Shown: positions 465 through 56,052, counted from the first letter of the stretch. The stretch is 64,000 nucleotides of DNA from Caulobacteraceae bacterium (GCA_036388855.1 DASVRA010000011.1:38253-102252), one strand, 5' to 3'. Translations and numbers: made by a program. Notes: generated by a model not told the origin, from the sequence alone.

Positions 465-611
465 ATGCGCCCCGAGCACTCCCGCGTACCCGAACCCGAG
501 GACGCCCGCGCGGACCGGACGGTGCGCGCGCCGCAGCTCGCCTGGGCGTTGATCGCGGTGATCGTGATCCTGGCCTTTGTCGGTTTGGCGATGCTGTTCA
601 GCCGCAGCTGA
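465..611 (+). CDS. possible small membrane protein (48 aa)
   Basis: Internal ATG of ORF 411..611. Contains one clear TM helix (LAWALIAVIVILAFVGLAMLF). No obvious SD, so weak. Confidence 0.25.
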   Translation: MRPEHSRVPEPEDARADRTVRAPQLAWALIAVIVILAFVGLAMLFSRS

Positions 612-664
612 GCCGAGGAAGCGGCAGCCCTTGACAGCCTGCGTCCGCTATTGCTGTATACAGT

Positions 665-1339
665 ATGCAACAGAAGCTGGTTCGTCAGAACATCAGCGAG
701 GCGGTCGCGACGGCGCTCCGCGACCGGATCGTGGGTGGTCGCCTCGCCGGAGGCGAGCGGATCAACGAGGTGCGGCTGGCCGCCGAGCTGGGGGTCAGCC
801 GCACGCCGTTGCGCGAAGCCCTGACCCGGCTGACCGGCGAAGGGGCGGTGACCAGTCTTCCCAGGCTGGGCTTCTATGTCTGCCCGCTGAGCGCCGAGGA
901 GGTGGAGCAACTCTATCCCATCCGGGCGATACTCGATCCCGCGGCCTTGCGGCTGGGGCGCATTCCTCCGGCCGGCCAGTTGCGCAAGCTGCGGACGCTG
1001 AATGGGCGGATGCGGCGGGAGCACGATCCCCGGCAGGTGATCGCGCTAGACGACGAATGGCACCTGGATTTAGTGGCGGCGTGCCCGAACACGATCCTGC
1101 TAGGGCTGATCGAGCAGTTCATCTGGCGCACGCGCCGCTATGAGCTGGCGCTGATGTCGGACGGCGGCAACGTCCGCAACGCGGCAGACGAGCACGACCT
1201 GATCCTCGACGCGCTGGAGGCGGGCGACCTCGAGGGTGGCTGCGAGGGCCTGCGCCGCAACATGCAGAGCGGCAAGGCGCCGGTGCTGGCATGGCTGGCG
1301 AAGCGCCAGCGGACCGACGCATGCGCCGGACCTTGCTGA
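665..1339 (+). CDS. GntR/FadR-family transcriptional regulator
   Basis: N-terminal winged-helix GntR signature (INEVRLAAELGVSRTPLREALTRLTGEGAV), followed by an all-helical FCD-type C-terminal domain. Confidence 0.85.
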   Translation: MQQKLVRQNISEAVATALRDRIVGGRLAGGERINEVRLAAELGVSRTPLREALTRLTGEGAVTSLPRLGFYVCPLSAEEVEQLYPIRAILDPAALRLGRIPPAGQLRKLRTLNGRMRREHDPRQVIALDDEWHLDLVAACPNTILLGLIEQFIWRTRRYELALMSDGGNVRNAADEHDLILDALEAGDLEGGCEGLRRNMQSGKAPVLAWLAKRQRTDACAGPC

Positions 1340-1355
1340 TCAGGGCGGCGGAACA

Positions 1356-3227: not shown

Positions 3228-3430
3228 CCGCCGCGCCGCCACGACAACGCCGCCAACCTGCATGCGGAGGCCAGCGGCCTCAGCCCCCGCGTCTCGTCAA
3301 TGCGGCGCAGCAGGGCGGCCAGCGGCAGGGCGTCGGCGGCCGCCATCTCCTCCAGCACCGTCCAGAACTCCGACTCCAGCGCGATCGAGGTGGAATGGCC
3401 GGAGAGGTTGATCGAGCGCTTCTGCAGCAT
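3224..3430 (-). CDS. ribbon-helix-helix (RHH_4-type) small protein
   Basis: 68 aa. RSINLSGHSTSIALESEFWTVLEEMA is the typical RHH_4 pattern. 4-nt convergent overlap with the hydrolase gene. Confidence 0.7.
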   Translation of the reverse strand: MLQKRSINLSGHSTSIALESEFWTVLEEMAAADALPLAALLRRIDETRGLRPLASACRLAALSWRRGG

Positions 3431-3513
3431 GCGCGGCAGTTAGCGCTGATCGGCCGGCCCGGCGAGCCCACGCCGCGCTTGACCGGGCGGCGCGATTTGG
3501 CCACGCCAGCTGG

Positions 3514-4905
3514 ATGGAGATGATGATCAGCGCGGCGGAGGCGGGGCCGGGCGCGGCCGTGCCGGTGCGGTTCGCCGGTGAAGCCGGGCTGGCGGGCGAG
3601 CTGGAGCGCGCGGGCGGGGGAGCGGCGCGGCTGGCGGCGGATGCGGGCTTCAAGGGCAAGCGCGGTCAGGTGCTGGTGCTGAACGGCGCCGAGGGCGCTC
3701 CGCGCCTGGTGCTGGCGGGGCTGGGCAAGCCGCCGTTCGACGCCATGGCGGCGCGGCCGCTGCCGGCGAAGCTGCCGGCCGGCGACTACGCGGTCGAGGC
3801 GCCGCCGGAGGGTATCGACGAGGCGCGGCTGGCGCTGGGCTTCGCGCTCGGGAGCTACGGCTTCGACCGCTACAAGCCAAAGGCGGAGCCGAAGCGGGTG
3901 CGGCTGGCGGTGGCGTCGGAGGCGGCGCTGGCGGAGGCGCGGCGGATCGGCCACGCCTGTGCGCTGGCCCGCGACATGGTCAACACGCCGGCCAACGACA
4001 TGGGGCCGCTGCAGCTCGAGACGGTCGCGCGCGAGATCGCGGAGCAATACGGCGCGCAGATCGAGGTGACGGTCGGGGACGAGCTGCTGGAGGCGGGCTA
4101 TCCGGCTGTGCACGCGGTCGGGCGCGCGGCTGGGGCCGGGCGGGCGCCGCGGATGATCGAGATCGCCTGGGGCGAGGCGGGGCCGGTGGTCGCCGTGGTC
4201 GGCAAGGGGGTGGTGTTCGACACCGGCGGGTTGGACATCAAGACCTCCTCGGGCATGCGGCTGATGAAGAAGGACATGGGCGGGGCGGCCCATGCGCTGG
4301 CGCTGGGGCGGATGATCATGGACGCGGGGCTGCCGGTGCGGCTGAAGGTGCTGGTCCCGGCGGTGGAGAACGCAATCTCGGGCGAGGCCATGCGGCCCGG
4401 CGACGTCCTGCGCACCCGCAAGGGCCTGACCGTGGAGGTCGGCAACACCGACGCGGAGGGGCGGCTGATCCTGGCCGATGCCTTGGCCCGTGCGGCCGAG
4501 CACGAGCCGGAGCTGACCGTGGATCTGGCGACCCTCACCGGCGCGGCGCGGGTGGCGCTGGGGCCGCAGGTCGTGCCCTGCTACACTGACGACGACGAGG
4601 TTTGGCGCGGGCTGGAGGCGGCGGCGCGGGAGGTCTCCGATCCGCTGTGGCGGATGCCGCTGTGGCCGGGCTACGCCGAGGCGGTCGAGAGCGAGATCGC
4701 GGACCTGCGCAACGACGGCGACGCCTGGGCACAAGCCGGGTCGATCACCGCGGCGCTGTTCCTCAAGCGCTTCGCGCCCGAGCGGGGGTGGATCCACTTC
4801 GACATCTTCGCCTGGAACCCGAAGGGGCGGCCGGGCTGGCCGGTGGGCGCCGAGGCGCAGGCGATCCGGGCGCTCTACGCCTGGATTAAGGGCCGCTACG
4901 GATGA
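3514..4905 (+). CDS. M17 leucyl aminopeptidase family protein
   Basis: M17 catalytic motifs VGKGVVFDTGG and NTDAEGRLILADAL. Confidence 0.9.
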   Translation: MEMMISAAEAGPGAAVPVRFAGEAGLAGELERAGGGAARLAADAGFKGKRGQVLVLNGAEGAPRLVLAGLGKPPFDAMAARPLPAKLPAGDYAVEAPPEGIDEARLALGFALGSYGFDRYKPKAEPKRVRLAVASEAALAEARRIGHACALARDMVNTPANDMGPLQLETVAREIAEQYGAQIEVTVGDELLEAGYPAVHAVGRAAGAGRAPRMIEIAWGEAGPVVAVVGKGVVFDTGGLDIKTSSGMRLMKKDMGGAAHALALGRMIMDAGLPVRLKVLVPAVENAISGEAMRPGDVLRTRKGLTVEVGNTDAEGRLILADALARAAEHEPELTVDLATLTGAARVALGPQVVPCYTDDDEVWRGLEAAAREVSDPLWRMPLWPGYAEAVESEIADLRNDGDAWAQAGSITAALFLKRFAPERGWIHFDIFAWNPKGRPGWPVGAEAQAIRALYAWIKGRYG

Positions 4906-5744
4906 GCCCCGACGGCCGCACCACCCTGGCGCGGCCGGACCTCGCGGCGGCCTGGCTGGAGGGCCTGGTCCCGGCGCAGCGGTATGCGCCGATGAGGGCG
5001 CGCCGATGCCGCGTGACCTCCGCGCCTATCCGCGAGGCGCCCTCGGCGGAGGCCGTGCAGCAGGACCAGCTGCTGTTCGGCGAGCGGTTTGAAGTGCTGG
5101 AGACTCGCGACGGCTGGGCCTGGGGGCAAGCCGCGCGCGACGGCTACGTCGGCTACGTCCGCGCCGAGGCGCTGGACGGGGAACTGGCGGCGCCGACCCA
5201 CCGCGTGTCCGCCATCCGCACACTGGGCTTTGAGCGGCCGGACAAGAAGGCGCCCGTGATGCTGCCGCTGTCGATCAACAGCCTCGTGACGGCGGAGCGC
5301 GAGGCGGGCGGCTGGGTCGAGACATCCGGCGCCGGCTGGGTGTTCGCCGGCCATCTCGCGCCCGTGGGCGGGTTCGAGCGCGACCCGGCGGCGGTGGCGG
5401 AGCGGTTCCTGGGCGCGCCCTACCTGTGGGGCGGGCGGGAGATCACCGGCGTCGACTGCTCCGGGCTGGTGCAGCAGGCGCTGCTCGCCTGCGGGCGGGG
5501 ATGCCCGCGCGACGCGGACCAGCAGGCGGCGGCGCTGGGGCGGGAGATCGGCGAGAGCGAGCTGCGGCGGGGCGACCTGGTGTTCTGGCCGGGGCACGTG
5601 GCGATGATGCTGGATGAGGCGCGGGCGGTCCACGCCACCGGCTCCACGATGAGCGTGGTGGTCGAGCCGGTCGAGGCGATCACCTCGAGGCGGCTGGCGG
5701 CGGGGAGCGGCGGGCCGACGGTGTTCCGCCGTCCACTGTGCTGA
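4902..5744 (+). CDS. NlpC/P60 (C40) peptidoglycan peptidase with SH3b-like N-domain
   Basis: Catalytic Cys context GVDCSGLVQQA and His context WPGHVAMM. ATGA start/stop overlap with the M17 gene. Confidence 0.85.
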   Translation: MSPDGRTTLARPDLAAAWLEGLVPAQRYAPMRARRCRVTSAPIREAPSAEAVQQDQLLFGERFEVLETRDGWAWGQAARDGYVGYVRAEALDGELAAPTHRVSAIRTLGFERPDKKAPVMLPLSINSLVTAEREAGGWVETSGAGWVFAGHLAPVGGFERDPAAVAERFLGAPYLWGGREITGVDCSGLVQQALLACGRGCPRDADQQAAALGREIGESELRRGDLVFWPGHVAMMLDEARAVHATGSTMSVVVEPVEAITSRRLAAGSGGPTVFRRPLC

Positions 5745-5748
5745 AACG

Positions 5749-6525
5749 CTAGCCCGGCGAGCGGCCGGCGTCGCGGCGTTCCTGGGTCGGAGCCTTGGCG
5801 GCCCCCGCTTGGGGCGTCTGGCGGGGTCCGGCGACGTTGGTGGTGCTTTCCCCCGTGCCGACGACGGTGGGCGAGCCCTTGGGCTGGGGTGCGCCGGCTG
5901 TGGCGTCGCTGGCGGCGGCGGCGTCCGAACCGCCCGCGGCCGCGGCTGCCGCCACATCAGAACTGCCGGCGGCGGCGGCCGGATTCGGAGCGGGGATCGG
6001 GAAGCCGGTGGAGCCCAGGGTGCGCAGGAAGGCGATGATGTTGACGCGGTCCTCGGGCTTCTTCAGCCCGACGAAGGTCATCTTGGTGCCGTTGATGTGC
6101 TGCTGCGGCGACTTGAGGAATTCGCTGAGCTGCTCGTAATCCCAGACCGGGTGGTCACCGCCAAACTTGGTCATGGCTTCGGAATAGGCGAAGCCGGGGT
6201 GCGAACCGGGCTTGCGGCCCAGCACGCCGTAGAGGTTGGGGCCGGTGCCGTTGGGGCCGCCGGCCTCGAAGGTGTGGCAGGAGACGCACTTCTGGTGCAC
6301 CGCCTCGCCGGCGGTGACGTTGGCGACGGGGATCACCGTGCCCCAGTCGATCGGCGCCTCGGCGGCCGCCCCGCCCTCGGCGGTTTCTTGCACGGCGATG
6401 AAGTAGCCGGGCTTGGCCGGGGCTTCCTTGTGGAAGACCATCGAGGAGATCTCACGCAGGCCGAAGATGGCCAGGCCCGTCGCCAGCACGCCGGCGGCGA
6501 TCTTGTTGAACCCGAGGTCGCTCAT
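5749..6525 (-). CDS. membrane-anchored c-type cytochrome (CycM-like)
   Basis: N-terminal TM anchor AAGVLATGLAIFGL and haem site CVSCH. Ala/Gly/Pro-rich low-complexity C-terminal tail. Confidence 0.85.
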   Translation of the reverse strand: MSDLGFNKIAAGVLATGLAIFGLREISSMVFHKEAPAKPGYFIAVQETAEGGAAAEAPIDWGTVIPVANVTAGEAVHQKCVSCHTFEAGGPNGTGPNLYGVLGRKPGSHPGFAYSEAMTKFGGDHPVWDYEQLSEFLKSPQQHINGTKMTFVGLKKPEDRVNIIAFLRTLGSTGFPIPAPNPAAAAGSSDVAAAAAAGGSDAAAASDATAGAPQPKGSPTVVGTGESTTNVAGPRQTPQAGAAKAPTQERRDAGRSPG

Positions 6526-6560
6526 GTCAGACGGCAGGCCTTATCGAAGCCGTTGCGGAG

Positions 6561-6597
6561 AAGGAAAAGCCGCGCCGGAAGGGCCGGTTTTCGCGGG
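6561..6597 (-). terminator. putative intrinsic terminator after nudC
   Basis: Minus strand reads CCGCG-AAAA-CCGG CCCTT CCGG-CGCGG followed by CTTTTCCTT. This is an interrupted 9-bp stem plus a U-rich tract about 40 nt after the nudC stop. Confidence 0.4.
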
Positions 6598-6635
6598 CGT
6601 GTCTGTGGCACGGGCAGGGATGAGGCGCAACCGCC

Positions 6636-7556
6636 TCACCCCGCCGCCCAGGCGCGGATCAGCTGGTGGGCGATGGAGTGCGGCCAGGGGGCGGACAGGC
6701 CGGGCAATTCGCCGGCGATCAGGGCGCGCGCCTCGTTGCGGGTGAACCAGCGCACCGCCTCCAGCTCGGTTTGGTCAGGCCGCGCCTCGCCCTCGGCGAC
6801 CTGCGCGGTGAGGCCGATCATCAGTGAGGAGGGGAAGGGCCAAGGCTGGCTGGAGTGGTAGGCGACGGCGGTGACGGTCAGGCCGCACTCCTCGGCCACC
6901 TCGCGCGCGCAGGCCTCCTCGATCGACTCGCCGGGTTCGAGGAAGCCCGCCAGCGCGGAGAAGCGGCCGGGGTCCCAGGCCGCCTGGCGCCCCAGCAGGC
7001 AGCGGTCGCCGATCACCGGCAGCATGATCACCACCGGGTCGGTGCGGGGGAAGTGCTGCGTGTGGCAGGCGGGGCAGTCGCGCCGCCAGCCGGCGTCCGT
7101 GGCGAGCGTCGGCTGCCCGCAGTTGGCGCAGAAGCGGTGGCGGCTGCTCCACTCGAACAGCGCCCGCGCCGTGGCCGCCACCGCAGCGTCCCCCGCGCCG
7201 AGCAGCGGGGTCACCTTGCGGAAGTCCTCGAAACGGCCGCGGCCCTTCAGCGGCCCCTCCGACGGATCTGAGCCGCCGTCGAGATCGACGGCGAACACCG
7301 CCGTCTCGCCGTCGAGCCCAAGGAACAGCAGGTCGCGCTCGTCGCCGGCCAGCGACACCGCCGGCCCCGGCTCAAGCTCGGCCAGCCGAACGCCGCCCCC
7401 GCGCGTGGTGACCAGTGGCTGACCGCGCCACAGCGCATGCACCCGCGTGCCCGTCGCCTTCAGCCGCCCCGCCAGCCATTCTACGTCCCCGCGCCGCTCG
7501 CTGGCGCGGTCGAGCGGGCTCCCGGCGTAGGTGTTGATCAAGCCGCGCGGCGGCAC
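6636..7556 (-). CDS. nudC: NAD+ diphosphatase (NADH pyrophosphatase), Nudix family
   Basis: Zn-ribbon CANCG...CPACH followed by Nudix box GFLEPGESIEEACAREVAEECG. GTG start 14 nt after the aldolase stop. Confidence 0.85.
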   Translation of the reverse strand: MPPRGLINTYAGSPLDRASERRGDVEWLAGRLKATGTRVHALWRGQPLVTTRGGGVRLAELEPGPAVSLAGDERDLLFLGLDGETAVFAVDLDGGSDPSEGPLKGRGRFEDFRKVTPLLGAGDAAVAATARALFEWSSRHRFCANCGQPTLATDAGWRRDCPACHTQHFPRTDPVVIMLPVIGDRCLLGRQAAWDPGRFSALAGFLEPGESIEEACAREVAEECGLTVTAVAYHSSQPWPFPSSLMIGLTAQVAEGEARPDQTELEAVRWFTRNEARALIAGELPGLSAPWPHSIAHQLIRAWAAG

Positions 7557-7569
7557 GGCCGCGGCGGCT

Positions 7570-8589
7570 TTACGCCGCCTGCTCCAGCGGCGCGTCCCAC
7601 TGGCCGAGCGAGGCCAGGCCGTTCATGCGGGCGCGGTGGGCGAAGGCGCGTTGGCCGGCGGCGACGTTCTCGCGCTTGCCCGACCAAGCCTTCTGCGGCG
7701 CGGCCTGGAGGGCGCGGCCGTAGGAGAAGGTCATCTTCCAGGGGAAGCCGCCGATTTTGTTCATGGCGTTCAGGTGGGCGGTGGCCTCCTCGTCCGACTG
7801 GCCGCCGGAGAGGTAGGCGATGCCGGGCACGGCCGAGGGCACGGTGGCCTTGAGCGCGGCGATGGTGCGTTCGGCCACCTCGTCCACCGTAGACTTCTGC
7901 GGGCAGCCCTTGCCGCAGAGGACCATGTTGGGCTTGAGCACCATGCCTTCGAGCGCCACGCGCTGCTCGAACAGCTCCTCGAAGGTGGTCTGCAGCACCC
8001 AGCGGGTGACCTTGTCGCAGCGGTCGATGCCGTGGGCGCCGTCCATCAGCACCTCGGGCTCGACGATCGGCACGACGCCTTCCTGCTGGCAGATGGCGGC
8101 GTAGCGGGCCAGCGCGTGGGCGTTGGACTTGACCGCGCCCCAGGTGGGAATGCCCGGCGCGATGTCGATCACCGCCCGCCACTTGGCGAAACGCGCGCCG
8201 CGCTCGCGGTAGTTGGCCATCCGCTTGGACAGGCCGTCCAGGCCCTTGGTGATGTATTCGCCCGGGAAGCCGGCCATGCGGCTGGCGCCCCGGTCGACCT
8301 TGATGCCGGGGATGGCGCCGGCGGCGGTGATCAGCTCGACCAGGGGCGTGCCGTCCTCGGCGTCCTGGAACAGGGTCTCCTCGAACAGGATCACGCCGGA
8401 GATGTGCTTCATCCCCTCGGCCGAGCGGAACAGCATCTCGCGGTAATCGCGGCGGTTCTGTTCGGTGTTCTCCACCCCGATCGGGTCGAAGCGCTTCTGG
8501 ATGGTGCCCATCGACTCGTCGGCGGCAAGGATGCCCTTGCCGGGCGTCACCATCCGGTTGGCGATGTCGTTCAGTGCGTTCAGGTCCAT
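7570..8589 (-). CDS. fba: fructose-bisphosphate aldolase, class I
   Basis: N-terminus MDLNALNDIANRMVTPGKGILAADES is typical of class I aldolases. ATG at 8589 chosen inside ORF 7570..8649. Confidence 0.9.
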   Translation of the reverse strand: MDLNALNDIANRMVTPGKGILAADESMGTIQKRFDPIGVENTEQNRRDYREMLFRSAEGMKHISGVILFEETLFQDAEDGTPLVELITAAGAIPGIKVDRGASRMAGFPGEYITKGLDGLSKRMANYRERGARFAKWRAVIDIAPGIPTWGAVKSNAHALARYAAICQQEGVVPIVEPEVLMDGAHGIDRCDKVTRWVLQTTFEELFEQRVALEGMVLKPNMVLCGKGCPQKSTVDEVAERTIAALKATVPSAVPGIAYLSGGQSDEEATAHLNAMNKIGGFPWKMTFSYGRALQAAPQKAWSGKRENVAAGQRAFAHRARMNGLASLGQWDAPLEQAA

Positions 8590-8600
8590 GGTCCCAGCCT

Positions 8601-9791
8601 CTATGCTTGCAGCGCCGCCACCCCGGGCAGCGTCTTGCCTTCCATCCATTCCAGGAACGCGCCGCCGGCGGTGGAGACGAAGGTGAAGTCTCCCGCCACG
8701 CCCGCGTGGTTCAGCGCCGCCACCGTATCGCCGCCCCCGGCCACGGCGACAAGCCTGCCGCCCTTGGCTAGCTGCGCCGCGTACCGCGCGGCCTCGACCG
8801 TGGCGCGGTCGAAGGGCGGAACCTCGAACACGCCGAGCGGGCCGTTCCAGATCAGGGTCTTGCAGCGGTCCATGGTGTCGAGCAGCCGGCGCACGCTGTC
8901 AGGCCCCGCGTCGAGGATCTTGTCCTGGGGCCCCACCTCGCCGAGCCCGCAGGTGCGGCTCTCGGCGCCAGGCGCCACCTCGCGGGCGACCACCACATCC
9001 GTCGGCAGCAGGATTTCGCAGCCCTGCGCCTGCGCCTTGTCCAGGATTTCGCGCGCGGTGTCGGCCATCTCCCGCTCGGCCAGCGAGGCGCCGATGTCGT
9101 GCCCTTGGGCGAACAGTAAGGTGTTGGCCATGCCGCCGCCGATGGCGAGGTGCTGCAGCTTGCCGACCAGGTTGTTCAGCAGGTCGAGCTTGGTGGAGAC
9201 CTTGGCCCCGCCGACTATGCCGATCACCGGCCGCTGCGGGTTGCCCAGCGCCTTGTCCAGCGCCTCCAGCTCCGCCTGCATGGCCAGCCCCGGATAGGCG
9301 GGCAGCCGCCGCGCCAGCCCTTCGGTCGAGGCGTGCGCCCGGTGGGCGGCGGAGAAGGCGTCGTTCACGTAGAGGTCGCCGAGCCGGGCCAGTTGGTCAG
9401 CGAAGGCGGGGTCGTTCTGCTCCTCGCCAGCGTGGAAGCGCAGGTTCTCCAGCAGCGCCACGCCGCCGTCCTCCAGCGCGTTCACCACCCGCTCGGCCTC
9501 CGGGCCGACGCAGTCGGGGGCGAAAGCCACCGGCTGCTCCAGCAGCGCCGACAGCGGCTCCACCACGGGCTTGAGGCTCATCTCCCGGTTCGGCTTGCCC
9601 TTGGGCCGGCCGAAGTGGGCCAGCAGCACCACCTTGGCGCCGGCCACGCTCAGCGCTCGGATCGTCGGCAGCGCCGCCCGCAGGCGGGTGTCGTCGCCGA
9701 CCCGGCCGTCCGACATCGGCACGTTGAAGTCCACGCGGACGAGGGCGCGCTTGCCGGTCAGATCAGCGTTTGCGAGAGAGCGGAAGGTCAT
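8601..9791 (-). CDS. pgk: phosphoglycerate kinase
   Basis: [26 protein letters not shown] start, 397 aa, full-length Pgk-like. ATG at 9791 inside ORF 8601..10067. Confidence 0.95.
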
Positions 9792-9792
9792 T

Positions 9793-10350
9793 CTACCTGG
9801 TGCCTTGTTCAAGCTGGCATTCAATGCCTCGCAGGGCAAGTGAACGGCAGACCTTGTCCAACACCACGTTATTGTCCCTATGCGAGACGAAGTACTGCCC
9901 TGCGAGTATCGCCTCCAGGCCACTCGGCATCGCCCAAATCTTCGATCCAAAGTTCTGACTACCGCCTTCCAGGTAGTAGGCGTGCGGGTTCTCCACTCGT
10001 CGATTGTTTTCGAAGACCAGCGGCTTGGCTTCGATCCACTGCTTGAACGCTCGGTGCACGGCCTCAAACCGAGTTGCGACCGCCCTCAGGTTCGAAGCAA
10101 GGAAGTGAACTTCTCCAACACTCCAAAGTACACCGCGCCTGATGTTTGGTAGGGCGACCGTGATTACGGGGGACTTATTCGTATCGATTGAGCCGTCTGC
10201 GGCATGAGCCAAGGGCCCGAACTCACGGAAGTACAGAGTACGGCCAATTTTGTTCGCCACCTCTTCAGGCGGGGCATTAAGACTTCGAAACCAGCCTAGC
10301 ACTTCGCTTTCACCGGCGGGCGCTTCAACGAAATGGTAGGCTGCTGACAC
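9793..10350 (-). CDS. orphan hypothetical protein inserted between gap and pgk
   Basis: 185-codon open frame (tail of ORF 9793..11184) lying wholly between the gap stop (10371) and the pgk ATG (9791). The only plausible start is GTG 10350. The TAG stop is 1 nt before the pgk ATG. Hand-counted lines are 53-55 % G+C, against about 70 % in the flanks. Amino-acid composition is protein-like, not Arg/Pro-rich shadow. No family recognised. Confidence 0.55.
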
Positions 10351-10370
10351 GGTGGAGCCCTGCAGAAGCC

Positions 10371-11378
10371 TCAGATGAACTTGCCGAGCTGCAGGGCGGT
10401 ATCGGCCATCTTGGTCGAGAAGGCCCATTCGTTGTCGTACCAGCTCAGCACACGGGCCAGCTTGCCTTCGATCACCTGGGTCTGGGGCAGGGCGACGTTC
10501 GACGTGGTGGCGGTGTGGTTGAAGTCGCTGGAGACCAGCGGCTCGGTCCAAACCGCGAGGGTGCCCTTCATCGGCCCCTCGGCGGCGGCGCGCATGGCCT
10601 CGTTGATCTCGTCCTTGGAGACGTCGCGCGAGGGCGTGAACACCAGGTCGACCACCGAGACGTTCGGCGTGGGCACGCGGATCGAGGAGCCGTCGAGCTT
10701 GCCCGCAAGTTCGGGCAGCACCAGGCCCACGGCCTTGGCCGCGCCGGTGGAGGTGGGGATCATGTTCTGGGCCGCGGCGCGGGCGCGGTAGAGGTCCTTG
10801 TGCAGCTGGTCGAGCGAGGGCTGGTCGTTGGTGTAGCTGTGCACCGTCGTCATGTAGCCGCGCTCGATGCCGCAGAGTTCGTGCAGCACCTTGGCCACCG
10901 GCGCCAGGCAGTTGGTGGTGCACGACGCGTTGGAGATAATGTCGTCCTCGGCGGTGATGCTGTCGTGGTTGACGCCGAAGACGATGGTCTTGGACACCCC
11001 GTCCGCCGGCGCCGAAATCAGCACCTTCTTGGCCCCGGCCTCGATGTGCGCCCGCGCCTTGTCGGCGGAGGTGAAGATGCCGGTGCATTCCAGCGCGATG
11101 TCGACGCCGAGGTCGCGGTGCGGCAGTTCGGCCGGGTTGCGCACCGCCGTGCACCTGATCCGGCCCAGGCCGATGTCGATCCAATCCTCGCCCGCGTCTA
11201 CGTTGCCGGGGAAGCGGCCGTGGGTGGTGTCGTAGCGGAGCAGGTGGGCGTTGGTGGCCACCGGCCCCAGGTCATTGATCGCCACCACCTCGATGTCGCG
11301 CCGCCCGTGCTCGAAGATCGAGCGCAGCACCAGCCGGCCGATGCGGCCGAACCCGTTGATCGCGACTCTCAGGGCCAT
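10371..11378 (-). CDS. gap: glyceraldehyde-3-phosphate dehydrogenase
   Basis: INGFGRIGR Rossmann start and catalytic SCTTNCLAP motif. GGGAG SD upstream. Confidence 0.95.
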   Translation of the reverse strand: MALRVAINGFGRIGRLVLRSIFEHGRRDIEVVAINDLGPVATNAHLLRYDTTHGRFPGNVDAGEDWIDIGLGRIRCTAVRNPAELPHRDLGVDIALECTGIFTSADKARAHIEAGAKKVLISAPADGVSKTIVFGVNHDSITAEDDIISNASCTTNCLAPVAKVLHELCGIERGYMTTVHSYTNDQPSLDQLHKDLYRARAAAQNMIPTSTGAAKAVGLVLPELAGKLDGSSIRVPTPNVSVVDLVFTPSRDVSKDEINEAMRAAAEGPMKGTLAVWTEPLVSSDFNHTATTSNVALPQTQVIEGKLARVLSWYDNEWAFSTKMADTALQLGKFI

Positions 11379-49946: not shown

Positions 49947-50615
49947 ATGCCTAGCGCCACCACCCTCGTCGACCTCAGCCACGCCATCGAACCCGGCATG
50001 ACCACCTACAAGGGCCTGCCGGGGCCGGTGATCTGCGACTACTGGAGCCGCGAGGCCTCGCGCGCCAACTACGACGACGGCTCCAGCTTCCAGATCGGCC
50101 GCATCGACATGGTCGCCAACACCGGCACCTACCTCGACAGCCCCTTCCACCGCTACGAAGACGGCGCCGACCTGGCGGAGCTCGACCTCGCCGCCCTGGC
50201 CGCGCTCGACGGCGTGGTCGTGCGCCAACCGGCCGTAGAAGGCCTCGCCGTGGAAGCCCAGGCGTTCGCCGGCCTCGACCTGCGCGGCAAGGCGGTGCTG
50301 GTCGCCACCGGCTGGGACCGCCACTGGCGCACCCCGGCTTATTTCGAGGACCACCCGTTCCTCACGGAAGCCGCCGCGCGCGCCCTGGCAGACGCCGGCG
50401 CCCGGCTGGTCGGCATCGACTCCCACAACATCGACGACACCCGCGCCCGCGCCCGCCCGGTGCACACCATCCTGCTGGGCGCGGGGATCCCGATCTGCGA
50501 GCACCTGTGCAACCTCCAGGCCCTGCCCGACGCCGGCTTCCGCTTCACCGCGGCGCCGCCGAAGATCCGCGGCATGGGCACCTTCCCCGTGCGGGCGTTC
50601 GCGGAGATCGACTAG
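49947..50615 (+). CDS. cyclase-family protein (kynurenine-formamidase-like)
   Basis: VDLSHAIEPGMTTY...DSPFH...GIDSHNID pattern of the putative-cyclase family. GAAGGAG SD before ATG 49947 (tail of ORF 48747..50615). Confidence 0.8.
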   Translation: MPSATTLVDLSHAIEPGMTTYKGLPGPVICDYWSREASRANYDDGSSFQIGRIDMVANTGTYLDSPFHRYEDGADLAELDLAALAALDGVVVRQPAVEGLAVEAQAFAGLDLRGKAVLVATGWDRHWRTPAYFEDHPFLTEAAARALADAGARLVGIDSHNIDDTRARARPVHTILLGAGIPICEHLCNLQALPDAGFRFTAAPPKIRGMGTFPVRAFAEID

Positions 50616-50630
50616 GCCGTGGAGACCGCC

Positions 50631-51458
50631 ATGCACATCGAACGCATCGCCGCCTTCTCCGACGGCGAGACCGGAGGCAACCCCGCCGGCGTCGTCCTGT
50701 GCGAAGCCCTTCCCAGCCCCCAGGCCATGCAGGCCCTCGCCGCCGAGGTCGGCTATTCCGAGACCGCCTTCGCCGCGCCGCAGGGGGACGGCTGGCGCGT
50801 GCGCTATTTCGCGCCGGCGATGGAGGTGCCGTTCTGCGGCCACGCCACCATCGCGCTGGGTGCGGCGCTGGCCGAGAAGCACGGCGACGGCGTCTTCGCC
50901 CTGCACCTGAACGCGGCGGAGATCACCGTCGAAGGCTGGTGCGAGGACGGCGCGCTGATGGCGGCCCTGCAGTCGCCCCCGACCCGCAGCGCCCCCGCGC
51001 CCGCCGGCCTGACCGCCGCCGCGCTGGACCTGTTCGGCTACGCCCCCGCCGATCTCGACCCCCGCCTGCCGCCCGCGATCATCGAGGCCGGGGCGCGCCA
51101 CCTGCTGCTGGCGTTACGCAGCCGAGAGCGGCTGGCGGCGATGGCCTACGACCTGGAGCAGGGACGCGCCCTGATGACCGCCGCCGGCCTCGTCACCATC
51201 AGCCTGGTGCAGGCCGAGACCCCCGCCCGCTTCCACGCCCGCAACCCCTTCGCCGCGGGCGGCGTCTACGAGGACCCGGCCACCGGCGCCGCCGCCGCAG
51301 CCCTGGCCGGCTACCTGCGCGACCTCCGCTGGCCCCACGGCGGGGAGATCGAGGTGCTGCAAGGCGCCGACATGGGCGTGCCGTGCCGCCTGCGGGCGGA
51401 GATCACCAATGAGGCGGGGGCGAGCGTGCGGGTGTGGGGGCGGACGCGGGGGATTTGA
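50631..51458 (+). CDS. PhzF-family isomerase
   Basis: AAFSDGETGGNPAGVV, SETAF and VPFCGHATIA motifs. ATG 50631 (GTG 50619 is possible). Confidence 0.85.
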   Translation: MHIERIAAFSDGETGGNPAGVVLCEALPSPQAMQALAAEVGYSETAFAAPQGDGWRVRYFAPAMEVPFCGHATIALGAALAEKHGDGVFALHLNAAEITVEGWCEDGALMAALQSPPTRSAPAPAGLTAAALDLFGYAPADLDPRLPPAIIEAGARHLLLALRSRERLAAMAYDLEQGRALMTAAGLVTISLVQAETPARFHARNPFAAGGVYEDPATGAAAAALAGYLRDLRWPHGGEIEVLQGADMGVPCRLRAEITNEAGASVRVWGRTRGI

Positions 51459-51627
51459 GTGGGCACGCCCTCTTTGACGATGAAGTTAGGTATGGTGTCC
51501 CTCCAAGCCCCCTCCCCACAATGGCCGCTACACTCTGCCTCGGCCGGGGTTATCGACCTTGCGTGCGAGGTGGTGGTAGGCTCCCTAACCGGCGATTGGC
51601 TCCGGAGGGAGAAGCGAGGCTTCGCTT

Positions 51628-52488
51628 GTGACCGCATCGCAACCGAGCATTCCCACGATGCGTTCGGTGTCGCCGTTTCGGTATCCGGGCGGGAAGGCCT
51701 TTCTCTACAGGTATCTTAACGATCGACTCAATTCGTTACCGGAAGGCCGACGCATCTATGCCGAGCCATACTGCGGCGGGGCGGGGGCTGCGGTCATTCT
51801 CCTTAAGTTAGGTGCTGTCGAAGAAATCCATCTCAATGATGCTGATCTCAAAGTATATTCGGCTTGGGAAGCCATTCTTACTGAGTCGGAGCGATTTGCT
51901 TCGCAGATCATGTCAACACCTGTGGACATGTTCACTTGGTATGCGTGCCGAGAGTTAGTCGAAGGTGCGACTGAGCCGAGCTTTGAGCTGGGTTTCGCAA
52001 CGTTCTTTCTAAATCGGACGAGCCGGTCTGGCATTGTGGTCGGCGCAGGGCCGATCGGTGGGTATGAACAGCGAGGGACTTGGAAGATCGACGCGAGATT
52101 CAATAGAGAGGCATTGGCGGATCGAGTTCGATGGCTAGGATCAGTTCGTCATTCCATCAAGTTGACTCAAGAAGACGCGTTGACTTTCTTATCTCGCTCT
52201 ACCGCCCGCCTCTCGTTGGACCGAACGCTCTTTTTTGTAGACCCACCGTACGTCACCGCTGGCGGGCGGCTTTATTTGAACGCGATGGACGAGGGAAAGC
52301 ACATCGCCTTAAGTGATGTCCTCCAGGGCGGTACGCTGCCCCACTGGGTTCTGACTTACGACAATCACCCGCTTATTCTGGACCTATACAGCCGTCAAAC
52401 AATCCGTGACCTCTGCGTAAGCTACAGCCTTCAGAACAAGCGAAAGGAGCGCGAAGTACTCATTGGCGATCATGCCGCCTGCGCATAA
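51628..52488 (+). CDS. D12-class (Dam-like) N6-adenine DNA methyltransferase
   Basis: SPFRYPGGKAFL, EPYCGGAGA (SAM site), FFLNRTSRSG and catalytic FVDPPY. The start is GTG 51628 or ATG 51658. Confidence 0.85.
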   Translation: MTASQPSIPTMRSVSPFRYPGGKAFLYRYLNDRLNSLPEGRRIYAEPYCGGAGAAVILLKLGAVEEIHLNDADLKVYSAWEAILTESERFASQIMSTPVDMFTWYACRELVEGATEPSFELGFATFFLNRTSRSGIVVGAGPIGGYEQRGTWKIDARFNREALADRVRWLGSVRHSIKLTQEDALTFLSRSTARLSLDRTLFFVDPPYVTAGGRLYLNAMDEGKHIALSDVLQGGTLPHWVLTYDNHPLILDLYSRQTIRDLCVSYSLQNKRKEREVLIGDHAACA

Positions 52489-53450
52489 GCGCAGTAGCCG
52501 TAGACCCACGCCCGAACATCATCGATGAGATCGGCACCGTCGACCGGTACCCCTGCTGCGGATAGTTGGAGCCCCTGCCACGCCCTGAGCGGCAATCTGG
52601 AACGCTCGAGAATCGCGCGATGGTATTGGTGCATGAGATTCCAATGTCGCTGATCAATCACTCGAAACGGGATTAGAGTGACATGAGTAATGTTACCCGT
52701 CGCGTGATCCTGAATGTAGGCGGCAGTGAACGTGTCGGCTCGGTTTGCTACGGGCTTGTCTTCCCAGTTTCGTCCGCTAGCCGTTTGCCCAAAATAAAAC
52801 ACTGTCGGTGGCGGCTGCCCGTCAAGGGTAAAGGCGATGACGTCGATGCCGCCATCCTTCTCTTTGGGTGGGGTGTAAGCGCCCGGGGGATTTCGAACCG
52901 TGAACCCTGCGCCCGCGGCTGCGGCACGGTTCAGCAGTTCGACGATGGCCTCTCCCGATTGACGAGGCCATCCAACGCTGAATGCCGGTCCACCGGCTAG
53001 ACCAGCAACACCTAGGGTAGCGACGATCTGAAATACCTTGTTCCGGAGCTCCAACAGCATTTCGTCGGTAGGAGGTTTATCCAGTATTGAGGATCCCGTA
53101 GCGTGAGCCGCCACAAGGCAGACGATGTAGAACACCAATTTGGGTTCATCCCGCCAACTCAGGTTGATGGTGACCTCGTCACCAGACTCGGATAGCTGGT
53201 AGGGGTACGTGTCTTCGAGGGTTTTCTGCCGGAATGAAACCTCAGCCTCGATGCGCTCAACGAGCTGCTCGCGCCCCTGATCCCGCCGCCCTATGTCATC
53301 TTCCGCAGTCGGTTCTAGTTCCGCCAGCGAACCTAGGAGCGCATCCAGTCTGGACACCCCGTACGGGTCGAAAAGCGCGGCGAGCTCTAGCCAGTCGACA
53401 AGGTCATCAACTTCAAGGGCAAGATTAGGCGCGTTGACTACCTGGGACAT
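52470..53450 (-). CDS. orphan 326-aa protein, possible degenerate nuclease-like core
   Basis: Full ORF with ATG, starting 8 nt after the upstream stop. The segment KDGGIDVIAF...FYFGQTASGRNW is only loosely reminiscent of Mrr-cat/PD-(D/E)xK. No family recognised. Low-GC codon usage matches the island. Confidence 0.6.
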   Translation of the reverse strand: MSQVVNAPNLALEVDDLVDWLELAALFDPYGVSRLDALLGSLAELEPTAEDDIGRRDQGREQLVERIEAEVSFRQKTLEDTYPYQLSESGDEVTINLSWRDEPKLVFYIVCLVAAHATGSSILDKPPTDEMLLELRNKVFQIVATLGVAGLAGGPAFSVGWPRQSGEAIVELLNRAAAAGAGFTVRNPPGAYTPPKEKDGGIDVIAFTLDGQPPPTVFYFGQTASGRNWEDKPVANRADTFTAAYIQDHATGNITHVTLIPFRVIDQRHWNLMHQYHRAILERSRLPLRAWQGLQLSAAGVPVDGADLIDDVRAWVYGYCAYAQAA

Positions 53451-53458
53451 TTCGCTTG

Positions 53459-54610
53459 CTATGACAGCGTAGCGCTAGCGACCGCCGAATCCACCTGGGT
53501 CTTGACGATGCCTGCTCTCTTTGCCGCCGAATCCGCGATCATTTGAAGCTCCGGCTGCGCAATAGGGTCGAAGCCTTCAAGCGTCGTCAAGGCATGTTGT
53601 AGCTCGGCATTGGCGCTGATGAGGTGGCGTTGAAAGCGAATATCTACTGGCGTAGCCGTGATGATCGCTTCATCCAGGTTGTTTCGCTCTGTTAACACGC
53701 TGATGGCCGCCGGTGAGGACAACACTTCCCGTAACCTACCAAGATCAGGGTTTTGGCTCTTAACGGCGGGCTCTAAGTCCCGATCTTTAGAGCCGTACAG
53801 CCATATCAGTAGGTTACGAAGTTCGCTAAACTTGCCTTCTGGCACCGGATCCAAACTTGGATCGGCCGATCGGTCCGCTCTTGGCATTCCGAGATAGGCC
53901 GTGAATTCCTCATAGGCCAGGCCGGTATAAAGGTGGGAGAAGCTGAAAGATTTCCGCTTTCGGTCTGAAAGATCATAGATGCGGTTCTTCTCGGCCTGAT
54001 TCAGAACATAGAGCGCAGCGACCATGCGGTGCATCGTCATGTGCTGATCGCCCATCCGACTGGCAATCTGACTAAGGTTCATGCTGGGCTGGCCAGACGC
54101 CCGTTTCCGGTTTTCATCATCTAACCAGCGCGCGGCGAAACGAGCTTTGGCGAAGGCGTCCCACGATTGAGGTCCGTTGATGTGCTTGAATCCAATTAGA
54201 TCCCGCGCGTCGTCCTCGCGTTCAACACGAAACACCAGCAGCTCATTGAGCGTTGCTGCTTTGTCTGGCTCCATCGGTGGAACCGTCGTTCGCGCCGCCC
54301 GAGCAAGTTCTGGGTCACGCAAAACCTTTACCGCTGCCAAGCGGCGGTTTCCCTCCAGGACTGCTAATCGACTATCGCGCTCGATAACAATCAATGGCTC
54401 GATATTGATATAGCCGCTAGTCGAAATGGACTGGATCAATTCGGACAAATCCGCGGACGCAGCCAACGTGGCAATGATCGCGCTGTCGGTCGATTCCGCA
54501 GGCCGTTTGTCCGGAGTAAATCGGGGATTATTCTCATCGAAATCTAGGAGTTCAACGGGAACTTTCGCGGCCTCACCGATCGGAGGCAGAAGCACGCTAC
54601 CGTCGGCCAT
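53459..54610 (-). CDS. ParB/Srx-fold N-terminal domain + HTH protein (stand-alone, no ParA)
   Basis: ParB N-domain box VLEGNRRLAAVKVL. HTH-like NLSQIASRMGDQHMTMHRMVAALYVL. GGGGA SD 6 nt before the ATG. The C-terminal ~170 aa are unassigned. Confidence 0.7.
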   Translation of the reverse strand: MADGSVLLPPIGEAAKVPVELLDFDENNPRFTPDKRPAESTDSAIIATLAASADLSELIQSISTSGYINIEPLIVIERDSRLAVLEGNRRLAAVKVLRDPELARAARTTVPPMEPDKAATLNELLVFRVEREDDARDLIGFKHINGPQSWDAFAKARFAARWLDDENRKRASGQPSMNLSQIASRMGDQHMTMHRMVAALYVLNQAEKNRIYDLSDRKRKSFSFSHLYTGLAYEEFTAYLGMPRADRSADPSLDPVPEGKFSELRNLLIWLYGSKDRDLEPAVKSQNPDLGRLREVLSSPAAISVLTERNNLDEAIITATPVDIRFQRHLISANAELQHALTTLEGFDPIAQPELQMIADSAAKRAGIVKTQVDSAVASATLS

Positions 54611-54757
54611 TTGTATCCCCTAGCTTACAGATGAAATGGCAGCTTCACACTGTCGTAGCTGTTTGAGCCTTCCGGGCAGGGAGTCAACCGCTCGGCCTGC
54701 TTGTCCACCGGCTTGCGCTTCCAGGAAGCTTCGCGGCAGTCGCACCTGGCCGCAGCG

Positions 54758-55372
54758 TCACTTCGGACCGGGCGCCCCATGCCCCGAGTGGTCATGCCCC
54801 CCGCCGTCGGCCTTCGGCGCCGCCTTCGGGTACCGCCCCGCGGCCCCCGGCACGGTGACCAGGCCGCTGATCTCGCCGGGGTTATGGGCGTCAGTGTGGA
54901 TGTTGAGGACGATCAGGCCTTCGCGCAGGGCGCTGACGAAATCCTCGAAGCTCAGGGTGGAGTTCACCAGCCTGGCGCCGGCTGCGTAGTCCATGTCGGT
55001 CGCGGTCACGTGCATGCCGCGCGCGGTGGCGTGGTAGTCCGCGCCGTAGGGCAGCGGCACGACCAGGACCGAGGCGCCGCCGGCGGGGGTGGCGTACTTG
55101 TGCAGGTGGATGGGGCCGATCGGGGCGGCGACCAGCTTGTCCCACAGGGCCTCGGTGGTGATGCCCTCGACCGTCAGGTCCACCGAGACGCGCTGGCGCT
55201 CGGTGTCGACCTTGATCTTCGCCGCGCCCGTGGCCTTCGAACCGGTGGGCGCCGAGCCGTACTTGCCGTCGAGCGCGGCGTCGAAGCTGAGGATCTCCGC
55301 CCGCAGGGGCGTGGCCGAGGCGCTGGCCGCGAGCGCGAGGATGGCGCCGAGCACCGCCTGTTGGATACGCAT
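54758..55372 (-). CDS. CHRD domain-containing secreted protein
   Basis: Signal peptide MRIQQAVLGAILALAASASA. Motifs GPIHLH...G and LNIHTDAHNPGEISG, typical of CHRD. His/Gly-rich tail. ATG 55372 lies inside ORF 54758..55879. Confidence 0.8.
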   Translation of the reverse strand: MRIQQAVLGAILALAASASATPLRAEILSFDAALDGKYGSAPTGSKATGAAKIKVDTERQRVSVDLTVEGITTEALWDKLVAAPIGPIHLHKYATPAGGASVLVVPLPYGADYHATARGMHVTATDMDYAAGARLVNSTLSFEDFVSALREGLIVLNIHTDAHNPGEISGLVTVPGAAGRYPKAAPKADGGGHDHSGHGAPGPK

Positions 55373-56052
55373 GCGTTCGTCCCCGGAGCTGTCCGAACGC
55401 GAGCGTCGCATGGGATCGGCTGCATGAAAAGCTGCGGCCGACGAGCGCCCGCCTCCCCACTCCCCAAACCCTCCGCGGCCGCCTCCGCTGCCATCCCCGC
55501 CTGCCGCTTCTGCATGAGCTCTTTGTGCCGCTCGGAGTCGCGGCGTTGGACTTCCTGCCAATAGCGGACCTTGACCGGGTCCGGATCGGGGTCGTCCCAG
55601 ACGGCCATCAGCTCGGTCGCGTAGGCCGGCTCGAGCAGGGCGCGCGAAACGATCTCCAGGTTGCTCTGGGGCCGCTTGGCCGCAATCCGGGTCAGCACGT
55701 CGGCCAGCTGGGCCAGCTGCCGGGCTTCGTCGAAGCGGCTCTGGCGCATGGCCGAGGCCACCCCCTGCAGCGCCGCGCGGGCCAGCTCGGCCGCCTCGCC
55801 GGCGTCCGGCTCCAGCCCCGCGGTCAGCGAGCCGAGCGGCGGCGGCGGCGGCGGTTCGACCCGGTCCTGCTTGGTCCATTTCTCGCGCCAGGCCCGCCGC
55901 CAGATGGCCCAGGTGGTGACGTCGTAGCGCTCGGCCAGCACCTTGGCCGGCGCCCCGGCCAGATAGCTTTCGCGGATCAGCGCCCAGGTCTCCGGCCCCC
56001 TGATCTTGTAGGCCTTGCGCGGCGGCCGGGCCTTCGTCGCACCCTCATCCAT
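55174..56052 (-). CDS. hypothetical protein with N-terminal HTH-like segment; 3' end uncertain
   Basis: The N-terminal 200 aa are protein-like (YKIRGPETWALIRESYLAGAPAKVLAERYDVTTWAIWRRAW...). The last ~65 codons are Arg/Ser/Pro-rich and overlap the CHRD gene by 199 nt. Confidence 0.5.
   Translation of the reverse strand: MDEGATKARPPRKAYKIRGPETWALIRESYLAGAPAKVLAERYDVTTWAIWRRAWREKWTKQDRVEPPPPPPLGSLTAGLEPDAGEAAELARAALQGVASAMRQSRFDEARQLAQLADVLTRIAAKRPQSNLEIVSRALLEPAYATELMAVWDDPDPDPVKVRYWQEVQRRDSERHKELMQKRQAGMAAEAAAEGLGSGEAGARRPQLFMQPIPCDARVRTAPGTNACVSNRRCSAPSSRSRPAPRPRPCGRRSSASTPRSTASTARRPPVRRPRARRRSRSTPSASASRWT

Follow-up and report, generated by a model that had tools for sequence, protein, structure and literature searches.

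A GC-poor three-gene island in a Caulobacteraceae genome as a probable restriction-modification-like module with a ParB-fold subunit

What is the function of a compact island of three genes, foreign in composition to its surroundings, that joins a DNA methyltransferase (MTase) to two partner proteins with no recognised place in a defence system? This question is raised by positions 51459-54757 of a 64,000-nt stretch of DNA from a Caulobacteraceae bacterium (GCA_036388855.1 DASVRA010000011.1:38253-102252), hereafter the window, which is part of a 330-kb Caulobacteraceae contig from a metagenome-assembled genome (MAG; JGI Ga0334935_000006). The island is low in G+C content (GC), lies between a PhzF-like gene (end at 51458) and a CHRD gene (stop at 54758), and holds exactly three genes, as the initial annotation of this DNA had stated. 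We conclude that it is probably a self-contained, horizontally acquired cassette resembling a restriction-modification (R-M) system, with a role in defence or addiction. This reading is based on the strict three-way linkage of the genes with exchange of the MTase, the signature of mobile cargo, the location of a phage version in a defence hotspot, and kinship with a system that has been validated. What was observed or computed in this study, and is described below, comprises the genes and their folds, their family relationships, the three-way linkage, the MTase exchange and the foreign composition.

The three-gene module and its relatives

The island comprises the following features, with positions counted from the first letter of the window.

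51459-51627, no strand: left border, intergenic from the PhzF stop to the MTase start, where GC starts to drop; presumed MTase promoter
51628-52488, plus strand: D12-class MTase (alpha-type, N6-adenine), 286 aa; alternative start at 51658 (276 aa)
52470-52488, no strand: 19-nt stretch in which the convergent MTase and 326-aa genes overlap at their 3' ends, from open reading frame (ORF) coordinates
52470-53450, minus strand: gene for the 326-aa 'orphan' protein, with a winged-helix-like/helical N-terminal region and a C-terminal alpha/beta domain
53451-53458, minus strand: spacer from the ParB-like stop to the start of the 326-aa gene, 8 nt; operon junction, from ORF coordinates and a junction alignment
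53459-54610, minus strand: ParB-CTPase-fold gene, 383 aa, with an N-domain, a ParB-type helix-turn-helix (HTH) and a C-terminal helical domain
54611-54757, no strand: right border, intergenic from the ParB-like start to the CHRD stop, where GC regains the host level; presumed operon promoter

The two minus-strand genes are conserved as a pair. Two strict peptide patterns, applied to 185,579 species genomes, gave 19 loci, of which 18 are from Alphaproteobacteria and one is from the Holophagales; with metagenomic, viral and phage loci added, and the window itself left aside, the total came to 26 distinct loci. In all 25 loci having upstream sequence, the gene directly upstream of the orphan-like gene was ParB-like (hmmsearch E values of 1e-34 to 1e-219), and in each of these 25 informative loci the two genes were on the same strand, either a few nucleotides apart or overlapping. 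The co-occurrence of the pair, which the initial annotation had proposed as a check of its reading, was thus found throughout.

A DNA MTase was directly adjacent to the pair in all 24 loci having downstream sequence, although it was not always the same kind of enzyme. Seventeen loci carried a D12 MTase convergent to the pair, 52-82% identical to that of the window, and one carried a co-directional D12 enzyme; the neighbour was a co-directional N6/N4 MTase (PF01555) in four loci and a convergent C5 MTase in two, both of them phages. The occurrence of three unrelated MTase families beside one conserved pair suggests a requirement for a cognate MTase rather than for one MTase lineage. The 19-nt convergent overlap of the window recurs in the called genes of Alsobacter (8960-8978) and B. 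intermedia (10933-10951), and Rhizobium R635 has a convergent overlap of 9 nt (10970-10978).

In 20 of 20 loci the module had a lower GC than its flanks, the difference being 4-18 points. Bare insertions among housekeeping genes were seen in the window, in a Holophagales MAG (carB/hbd), in locus L030 (glnD-FKBP/mutS) and in B. intermedia (Fer2-terminase-like/sdh). Additionally, the Alsobacter copy adjoins RecT-containing, phage-like genes, and the module is present on two IMG/VR viral contigs.

Phage versions were identified by tblastn with the ParB-like protein, which found the P2-like phages Wphi, L-413C and HQ103, a P2 isolate, and Pseudomonas phage D14A. In Wphi, gp98 (401 aa) and gp96 (369 aa) are followed by a convergent C5-cytosine MTase, mth, and the locus has replication gene A on one side and the end of the genome on the other, the position that tin and old occupy in P2. 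The genes of D14A are laid out in the same way. Profile-profile comparison with hhalign related the ParB-like family to gp98 (probability 99.7%, E 1.3e-26, 306 columns) and the orphan family to gp96 (88%, E 2.9e-6) and to the middle protein of D14A (84%, E 7.6e-6); hmmsearch gave E values of 3e-7 and 2e-6 for the gp96 and D14A proteins. Three blocks, DGG[IL]D..AW, Q[CT][AG]xS...W..K and DRLRL, are common to the orphan, gp96 and the D14A protein, and both phage proteins share with the window protein the series DGGxD...Q..S...W..K...DRLRL. A tblastn search of 50,697 phage records with the orphan found no match, although relatives at the level of hidden Markov models (gp96, D14A) exist there. The Wphi locus resembles the window in its three-gene order, its convergent MTase and its low GC relative to the phage. 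It differs in that its MTase is a C5-cytosine enzyme (DruM-like in PADLOC) and not D12, in the low identity of gp98 to the ParB-like protein of the window (about 26-29%), and in its position in a prophage hotspot, whereas the window copy is a bare chromosomal island.

Of 5,426 complete E. coli genomes, 104 contained the Wphi module at an identity of >=99%; PGAP labels the three genes 'ParB N-terminal domain-containing protein', 'hypothetical protein' and 'DNA cytosine methyltransferase'. A gp98-gp96-C5 MTase module 100% identical to that of Wphi is found in E. coli W (NC_017635.1, 4338703-4341873) and in KO11FL and LY180, which derive from it. Judged from these sequence relationships, the module is a widespread, unnamed family of which Wphi gp98-gp96-mth is the phage prototype.

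The foreign composition of the window copy was established over the 64-kb window with 300-nt GC windows, a scan for the lowest 3-kb window, tetranucleotide distance, and GC at third codon positions (GC3). In 300-nt windows, GC fell from 0.73-0.77 at 50200-51549 to 0.51-0.60 at 51550-54699, and was 0.67-0.72 beyond 54550; the module itself (51628-54610) has a GC of 0.558, against 0.704 in the remainder of the window. The 3-kb stretch starting at 51701 is the GC minimum of the whole 64 kb (z = -8.1 relative to windows outside the island). The tetranucleotide distance of the island to the rest of the window was 0.528, against 0.252 +/- 0.036 (maximum 0.362) for other 3.3-kb segments, and the GC3 of the three island genes was 0.585, 0.615 and 0.604, against 0.91-0.95 in the PhzF, CHRD, LepA and S9 peptidase genes. 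The sharp low-GC island initially described between PhzF and CHRD is therefore confirmed. The gene junctions were likewise as first described: the ORF coordinates give the 19-nt overlap and the 8-nt spacer, and the sequence shows a GGGGA Shine-Dalgarno motif 6 nt upstream of the ParB-like ATG at 54610. The ParB-like and 326-aa genes are likely to be translationally coupled across the spacer.

Predicted roles of the three proteins

The translation of the MTase contains FRYPGGK, FLNRTSRSG and DPPY, it matches Pfam PF02086 above the cut-off, and its catalytic (DPPY) and S-adenosylmethionine (FxGxG-like) motifs are intact, in agreement with the D12 class named in the initial annotation. In PADLOC it is PD-Lambda-5_B (PDLC04018; E 2.5e-86, profile positions 3-270 of 291) and also matches MTase_II (9e-57), and among solved structures it is nearest to the adenine MTase 7m6b (E 3.5e-12). 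Public gene callers place the start at Met11 (51658), while tblastn alignments to homologues reach residue 1. We predict that this enzyme is the modification, or protective, component.

The 383-aa protein has the fold that was first proposed for it, a ParB/sulfiredoxin (Srx) domain followed by an HTH. Its AlphaFold2 (AF2) model has a mean predicted local distance difference test score (pLDDT) of 88.2, and Foldseek matched the N-domain and HTH, at probability 1.0, to ParB bound to CDP/CTPgammaS (7bnk, 7bnr), KorB (8qa9), Noc (7ol9), B. subtilis ParB and Srx. The GxRR P-motif, G87-N88-R89-R90, is intact, and the Box I/II residues (GNRRLAA included), aligned to Spo0J (4umk), are invariant in 48 homologues. 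Residues ~258-383 are helical and have no structural match. The protein matches phrog_3694, a PHROGs family of unknown function, over nearly its full length (E 4e-74). In PADLOC, 24 PD-Lambda-5_A models match residues ~15-162 only (best E 1.9e-19), ending at about profile position 160-175 of 440-500. PADLOC PDC-M38A, a 715-aa profile for which we found no literature, matches as well; it was considered as a fused version of the pair and rejected, since its match to the ParB-like family is limited to the first ~350 positions. Taken together with the modelled fold, the conserved motifs predict an NTP-gated DNA-binding, or sensor, subunit.

The 326-aa orphan is more difficult to place. As the initial annotation had it, the protein cannot be placed in a known family, with no match in Pfam, NCBIfam or PADLOC; it is not rare, however, but belongs to a superfamily of about 1,700 clusters. 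An exhaustive profile search against 50%-identity clusters recovered 1,707 members at E <= 1e-3, 635 at E <= 1e-10 and 170 at E <= 1e-30, nearly all of them stand-alone proteins of 320-360 aa, and a word index gave 104 close homologues, mostly alphaproteobacterial. The protein also matches phrog_14650 over nearly its full length (E 2e-25), again a PHROGs family of unknown function. Its AF2 model is confident (pLDDT 90.8; predicted template-modelling score, pTM, 0.91), and the top Foldseek matches, all weak, were MspJI, AspBHI, N.BspD6I, VC1899, Card1, Can2, Cdn1, Mrr-like proteins and Rpb5. PD-(D/E)xK enzymes dominate these sub-threshold lists in two independent libraries (PDB and BFVD), and winged-helix domains match the N-terminus.

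Across 133 divergent members drawn from the 50%-identity clusters, R74, P83, Y108, D199, D203, Q222, K232 and R283 are 100% conserved. In the model, the DGG[IV]D...Q motif lies on a pair of beta-strands. With Ala in place of the canonical Q-x-K lysine, catalysis would need K232, ten residues downstream. The modelled fold and the invariant residues thus suggest that the orphan may be a restriction-endonuclease-like domain with a relocated lysine, and we predict that it is the nuclease (or DNA-recognition) subunit of the restriction arm, the nuclease assignment being a weak one.

Two further relationships of the orphan were examined and rejected. The Mrr_N-domain protein that neighbours an orphan-like gene in Caulobacter endophyticus is not significantly related to it (hhalign probability 18%), and no Rosetta-stone fusion of the ParB-like and orphan proteins was found among 148 representatives. 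In the MAG of Brevundimonas sp. SSC2 (CP059260.1, 4852-6975), the two occur as one 707-aa in-frame ORF. Compared with B. intermedia, the sequence ahead of the stop differs in length by 2 nt, which produces this apparent fusion; it may be natural or may reflect an indel error in the assembly.

Kinship with known systems and rival explanations

The closest experimentally tested relative of the module is PD-λ-5, which has been described as 'ParB/HEPN, methyltransferase' by Vassallo et al. 2022 (PMC9519451). The ECOR7 system was shown to give broad anti-phage protection of E. coli, for which an mrr-deleted host was needed, and PD-λ-5 was termed a compacted RM+Abi (abortive infection) system (PMC9519451). 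Both PD-λ-5 and the window have an MTase of the PD-Lambda-5_B family and a partner with the same type of ParB N-terminal domain, and both are small mobile cassettes found in prophages. They differ in the remainder of the partner: PD-λ-5_A is a ParB domain fused to, or split from, a HEPN domain, whereas the window lacks HEPN and its ParB-like protein has a different C-terminal region of 220 aa, common to gp98. Furthermore, the window has a third gene, for a nuclease-like protein absent from PADLOC and from PD-λ-5; its MTase is convergent where that of PD-λ-5 is co-directional; and pairs of the window type, unlike PD-λ-5, also combine with C5 and N6/N4 MTases. The initial annotation had recognised no known system in the partners and had held that a match to a well-described one would count against its reading. 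Because of the PD-Lambda-5_A and _B matches of the ParB N-domain and the MTase, such a match was in part what we found, while the absence of HEPN and the lack of any defence-library counterpart of the 326-aa partner uphold the rest of the claim. The window module is therefore best filed as an R-M-like, PD-λ-5-related system in which the HEPN effector is replaced by a separate nuclease-like protein.

Two loci bear on this relationship. In Vibrio phage ValB1MD-2 (NC_055862.1, 31046-33485), PD-Lambda-5_A is split into gp42, the ParB half (profile positions 4-238 of 503), and gp41, the HEPN half (250-502), followed by the MTase gp40; the three genes are co-directional and lie beside the integrase end of this P2-like phage. 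The second is the Caulobacter endophyticus locus (NZ_JARQWV010000002.1, 599-10310), which encodes, in order, a TnsA-like protein, a full PD-Lambda-5_A (E 7e-122), the Mrr_N-domain protein, a ParB-like protein, an orphan-like protein and a convergent PD-Lambda-5_B MTase (E 1e-89). The PD-Lambda-5_A of this locus covers profile positions 1-464 of 466, which indicates that our method is able to detect the HEPN half when it is present. Since only one MTase is present, it would serve the ParB-HEPN arm as well as that formed by the ParB-like and orphan proteins. Both arms may thus be effectors that respond to one modification and either replace each other or cooperate, in keeping with the 'RM+Abi' description of PD-λ-5, and the composite may represent an 'uncompacted' RM+Abi arrangement. 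Found in one of ~25 loci, it is a lead and not a rule. A 717-aa HTH_31 protein follows the composite cluster.

Comparison with other systems separates the module from each of them. As in Type II/III R-M systems, an MTase is tightly linked to non-MTase genes, R and M units are convergent, and a minimal mobile cassette of foreign composition includes a partner predicted to be of PD-(D/E)xK type. The window differs in that its restriction arm consists of two subunits, one with a ParB-NTPase fold, in the lack of a helicase, Res-type ATPase, specificity subunit or controller protein, and in that its endonuclease activity is only predicted. To our knowledge, the ParB-NTPase fold is not a component of Type I-III enzymes. 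As in enzymes of the GmrSD, BrxU and SspE type, a nucleotide-binding domain of ParB/Srx fold would be paired in the module with a DNA nuclease, for a role in defence. Those enzymes are of Type IV and depend on modification; they combine DUF262 (a ParB-like NTPase) and DUF1524 (HNH, a His-Me nuclease) in a single chain and have no cognate MTase; in the window the GxRR motif fits classical ParB, the candidate nuclease is a separate protein, an MTase is present, and neither the ParB-like nor the 326-aa protein has a Pfam or PADLOC match to DUF262 or DUF1524. The ParB, KorB and Noc clamps share the fold of the N-domain and HTH and the conserved Box I/II residues, but the window has no parA or known parS and no match to the ParB C-terminal dimerisation domain, and the genomic partners of its ParB-like protein are an MTase and a nuclease-like protein. 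Finally, the orphan resembles Mrr and MspJI domains in its DGG[IV]D...Q motif and alpha/beta core, with fold matches below significance (E >= 0.009); it differs in having Ala at the Q-x-K lysine and an invariant Lys at +10, and no match to PF04471 (Mrr-like) was obtained for any of 51 family members. Mrr and MspJI cut modified DNA without a cognate MTase, whereas the window has one.

The preferred R-M-like reading can be set out as a mechanism. The D12 MTase would methylate adenines at cognate sites in host DNA. The ParB-fold/HTH protein would bind unmethylated DNA, with NTP binding at GxRR as a switch for clamping, sliding or oligomerisation, as in other proteins of the ParB-CTPase fold, and would recruit or activate the 326-aa partner, whose D199/D203/Q222/K232 centre would cut unmodified invading DNA. 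Loss of the cassette might be punished, the R and M arms being convergent and separately transcribed, and addiction of this kind would explain the spread of a bare three-gene unit. Which subunit cuts, and what is recognised, we only infer. A more specific version, which we regard as possible but somewhat doubtful, is that the ParB-fold subunit is an NTP-gated clamp: after loading at unmethylated sites it would slide along the DNA and either deliver the separate nuclease or activate it. Restriction would then be built on the ParB CTPase switch instead of the helicase/translocase motors of Type I and ISP enzymes or the Res ATPases of Type III, and in PD-λ-5 this sensor would be connected instead to a HEPN effector of abortive infection.

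Could the island be an ordinary PD-λ-5, combining RM with abortive infection through a HEPN RNase? Its best PADLOC matches, the full-length PD-Lambda-5_B hit and the 24 PD-Lambda-5_A models, point that way. The latter, however, are confined to the N-terminal part of the profile, hhalign probabilities to the HEPN half of the split PD-Lambda-5_A of ValB1MD-2 are 0.1% for the ParB-like family and 0.2% for the orphan family, the ParB-like protein is instead homologous over its full length to Wphi gp98, and the gene arrangement is one of three genes in which the MTase is convergent, where PD-λ-5 would have a co-directional pair. This explanation is largely refuted, and we give it almost no credence. 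A reversal of roles, in which the ParB/Srx-fold domain nicks or cuts and the 326-aa protein is a catalytically dead, endonuclease-like/winged-helix DNA reader that confers specificity, is unlikely in our judgement. It would account for the missing Q-x-K lysine, for the winged-helix-like N-terminus and for the faster divergence of the orphan (40-77% identity across the alphaproteobacterial loci, against 55-84% for the ParB-like protein), as might be expected of a specificity subunit; moreover, nuclease or nicking activity of ParB/Srx-superfamily proteins is reported in work cited in PMC10853773 and PMC12839542. Yet the invariance of D199, D203, Q222 and K232 would sooner be expected in an active site than in a DNA reader that varies, and the structures closest to the ParB-like domain are NTP-switch clamps (ParB, KorB, Noc) and not nucleases.

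The module might also have no part in defence, with the MTase acting as a mobile element's epigenetic or anti-restriction enzyme and the pair as a transcription switch or partition protein similar to KorB, VirB or BisD. Proteins of the ParB-CTPase fold do serve as transcription regulators and partition proteins (KorB, VirB, BisD, Noc), phage copies could methylate phage DNA and so evade host restriction, and an anti-defence role has been suggested for phage-borne ParB-MTase associations (PMC12704722). Against this, a bare three-gene unit among housekeeping genes leaves no element to regulate or partition; parA was adjacent in no locus examined, as judged from the neighbourhoods that carry precomputed Pfam annotation; an invariant acidic/Lys centre on a nuclease-like fold would be unexpected in a regulator; and the nearest tested relative, PD-λ-5, is a defence system. 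We therefore consider this explanation quite unlikely. That the window copy is a decaying or inactive remnant, functionless in this genome, is very improbable: it stands alone, without promoter-like signals above chance, in a host known only as a MAG, but all three ORFs are intact and full length, the proteins keep every invariant residue of both families, and ENA and Logan contigs encode the exact same 326-aa protein in the same gene context, so that an identical sequence has been assembled in three independent data sets in all.

Several observations weigh against the R-M-like reading itself. Even at lax thresholds the orphan has no sequence match in Pfam (E <= 5, also for 51 family members) and nothing meaningful in a PDB profile search (E <= 10). 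Its best Foldseek E values were 0.028 in PDB (TM score 0.25) and 0.009 in BFVD, with none <= 0.001 and no TM score above 0.28, and the Mrr-type Q-x-K lysine position (A224) is Ala in 98% of members, with the invariant K232 at +10 from Q222. Promoter-like signals in the island borders are not above chance: the left border has sigma-70-like sites at chance level, and the right border has none, the single site lying inside the ParB-like ORF and the count not exceeding that in shuffles. The window copy lies outside any defence island. Close relatives were lacking for an empty-site test, in which the 80 metagenomic PhzF loci were <=77% identical and CHRD was adjacent in none. No functional test or describing paper was found for the gp98/gp96-type family in the literature covered, which included a study of P2/P4 hotspots (PMC9122126), a survey of the ParB-CTPase fold (PMC12704722) and recent defence-system surveys. 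E. coli W, which bears the phage version, was termed 'restriction minus' in its genome paper, a label based only on the absence of hsd, mcr and mrr. Set against these points, the linkage of the pair to an MTase, the exchange of MTases, the low GC of the module and the hotspot position of the Wphi copy support the acquired R-M-like or defence module that was first proposed.

If this reading is confirmed, at least ~1,700 clusters would move from 'hypothetical' to a defined restriction or defence system. The genes concerned are found in many Alphaproteobacteria and, within P2-like prophages, in ~2% of the complete genomes of E. coli, among them that of strain W, which is used in industry. It would also give the ParB-CTPase fold a new functional role outside segregation and transcription, and would hint at how PD-λ-5 senses DNA, the two systems having a common sensor and MTase and differing only in the effector (HEPN RNase or DNase-like protein). 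Defence finders probably miss or mislabel the module, because existing models cover no more of it than the MTase and one partner's N-terminal third.

Genomic setting of the island

The neighbours of the island within 10 kb on either side are housekeeping genes (pheST, lepA, dapB and a CoA transferase). No integrase or transposase family was present among them, and neither a tRNA nor an Rfam match was found in scans of the window. Terminal repeats were similarly lacking at the borders, where the only perfect repeat that spans them is 11 nt, at chance level, with one of its copies falling within the CHRD gene. These results agree with the initial annotation, which had seen no integrase, transposase, tRNA or flanking direct repeat. 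Predicted terminators did not exceed chance. Pfam matches confirmed the genes on either side of the island as PhzF and CHRD.

An exact-sequence look-up of PhzF with the start codon as called here gave no match. In a metagenome contig (Ga0116227_10008405, 5046-7825), lepA lies directly upstream of phzF on the same strand, whereas in the window it lies on the opposite strand, beyond the island and CHRD; the order of genes around phzF is therefore not conserved among relatives at ~73% identity.

On the other side of the island, the CHRD ORF (54758-55879, minus strand) is 373 aa, compared with 204 aa (about 54758-55372) in public annotations. Its true start is probably internal, since the CHRD domain and a signal-peptide-like stretch begin near residue 180. 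A 292-aa ORF (55174-56052, minus strand) without a Pfam match shares ~200 nt with the 5' part of this long CHRD ORF; it is a gene in the JGI annotation and not in that of ENA, and its N-terminus is HTH-like in appearance. The sole other GC dip in the window, at 9500-11000 (0.61-0.63), corresponds to the genes for phosphoglycerate kinase and glyceraldehyde-3-phosphate dehydrogenase and is an ordinary region, not an island.

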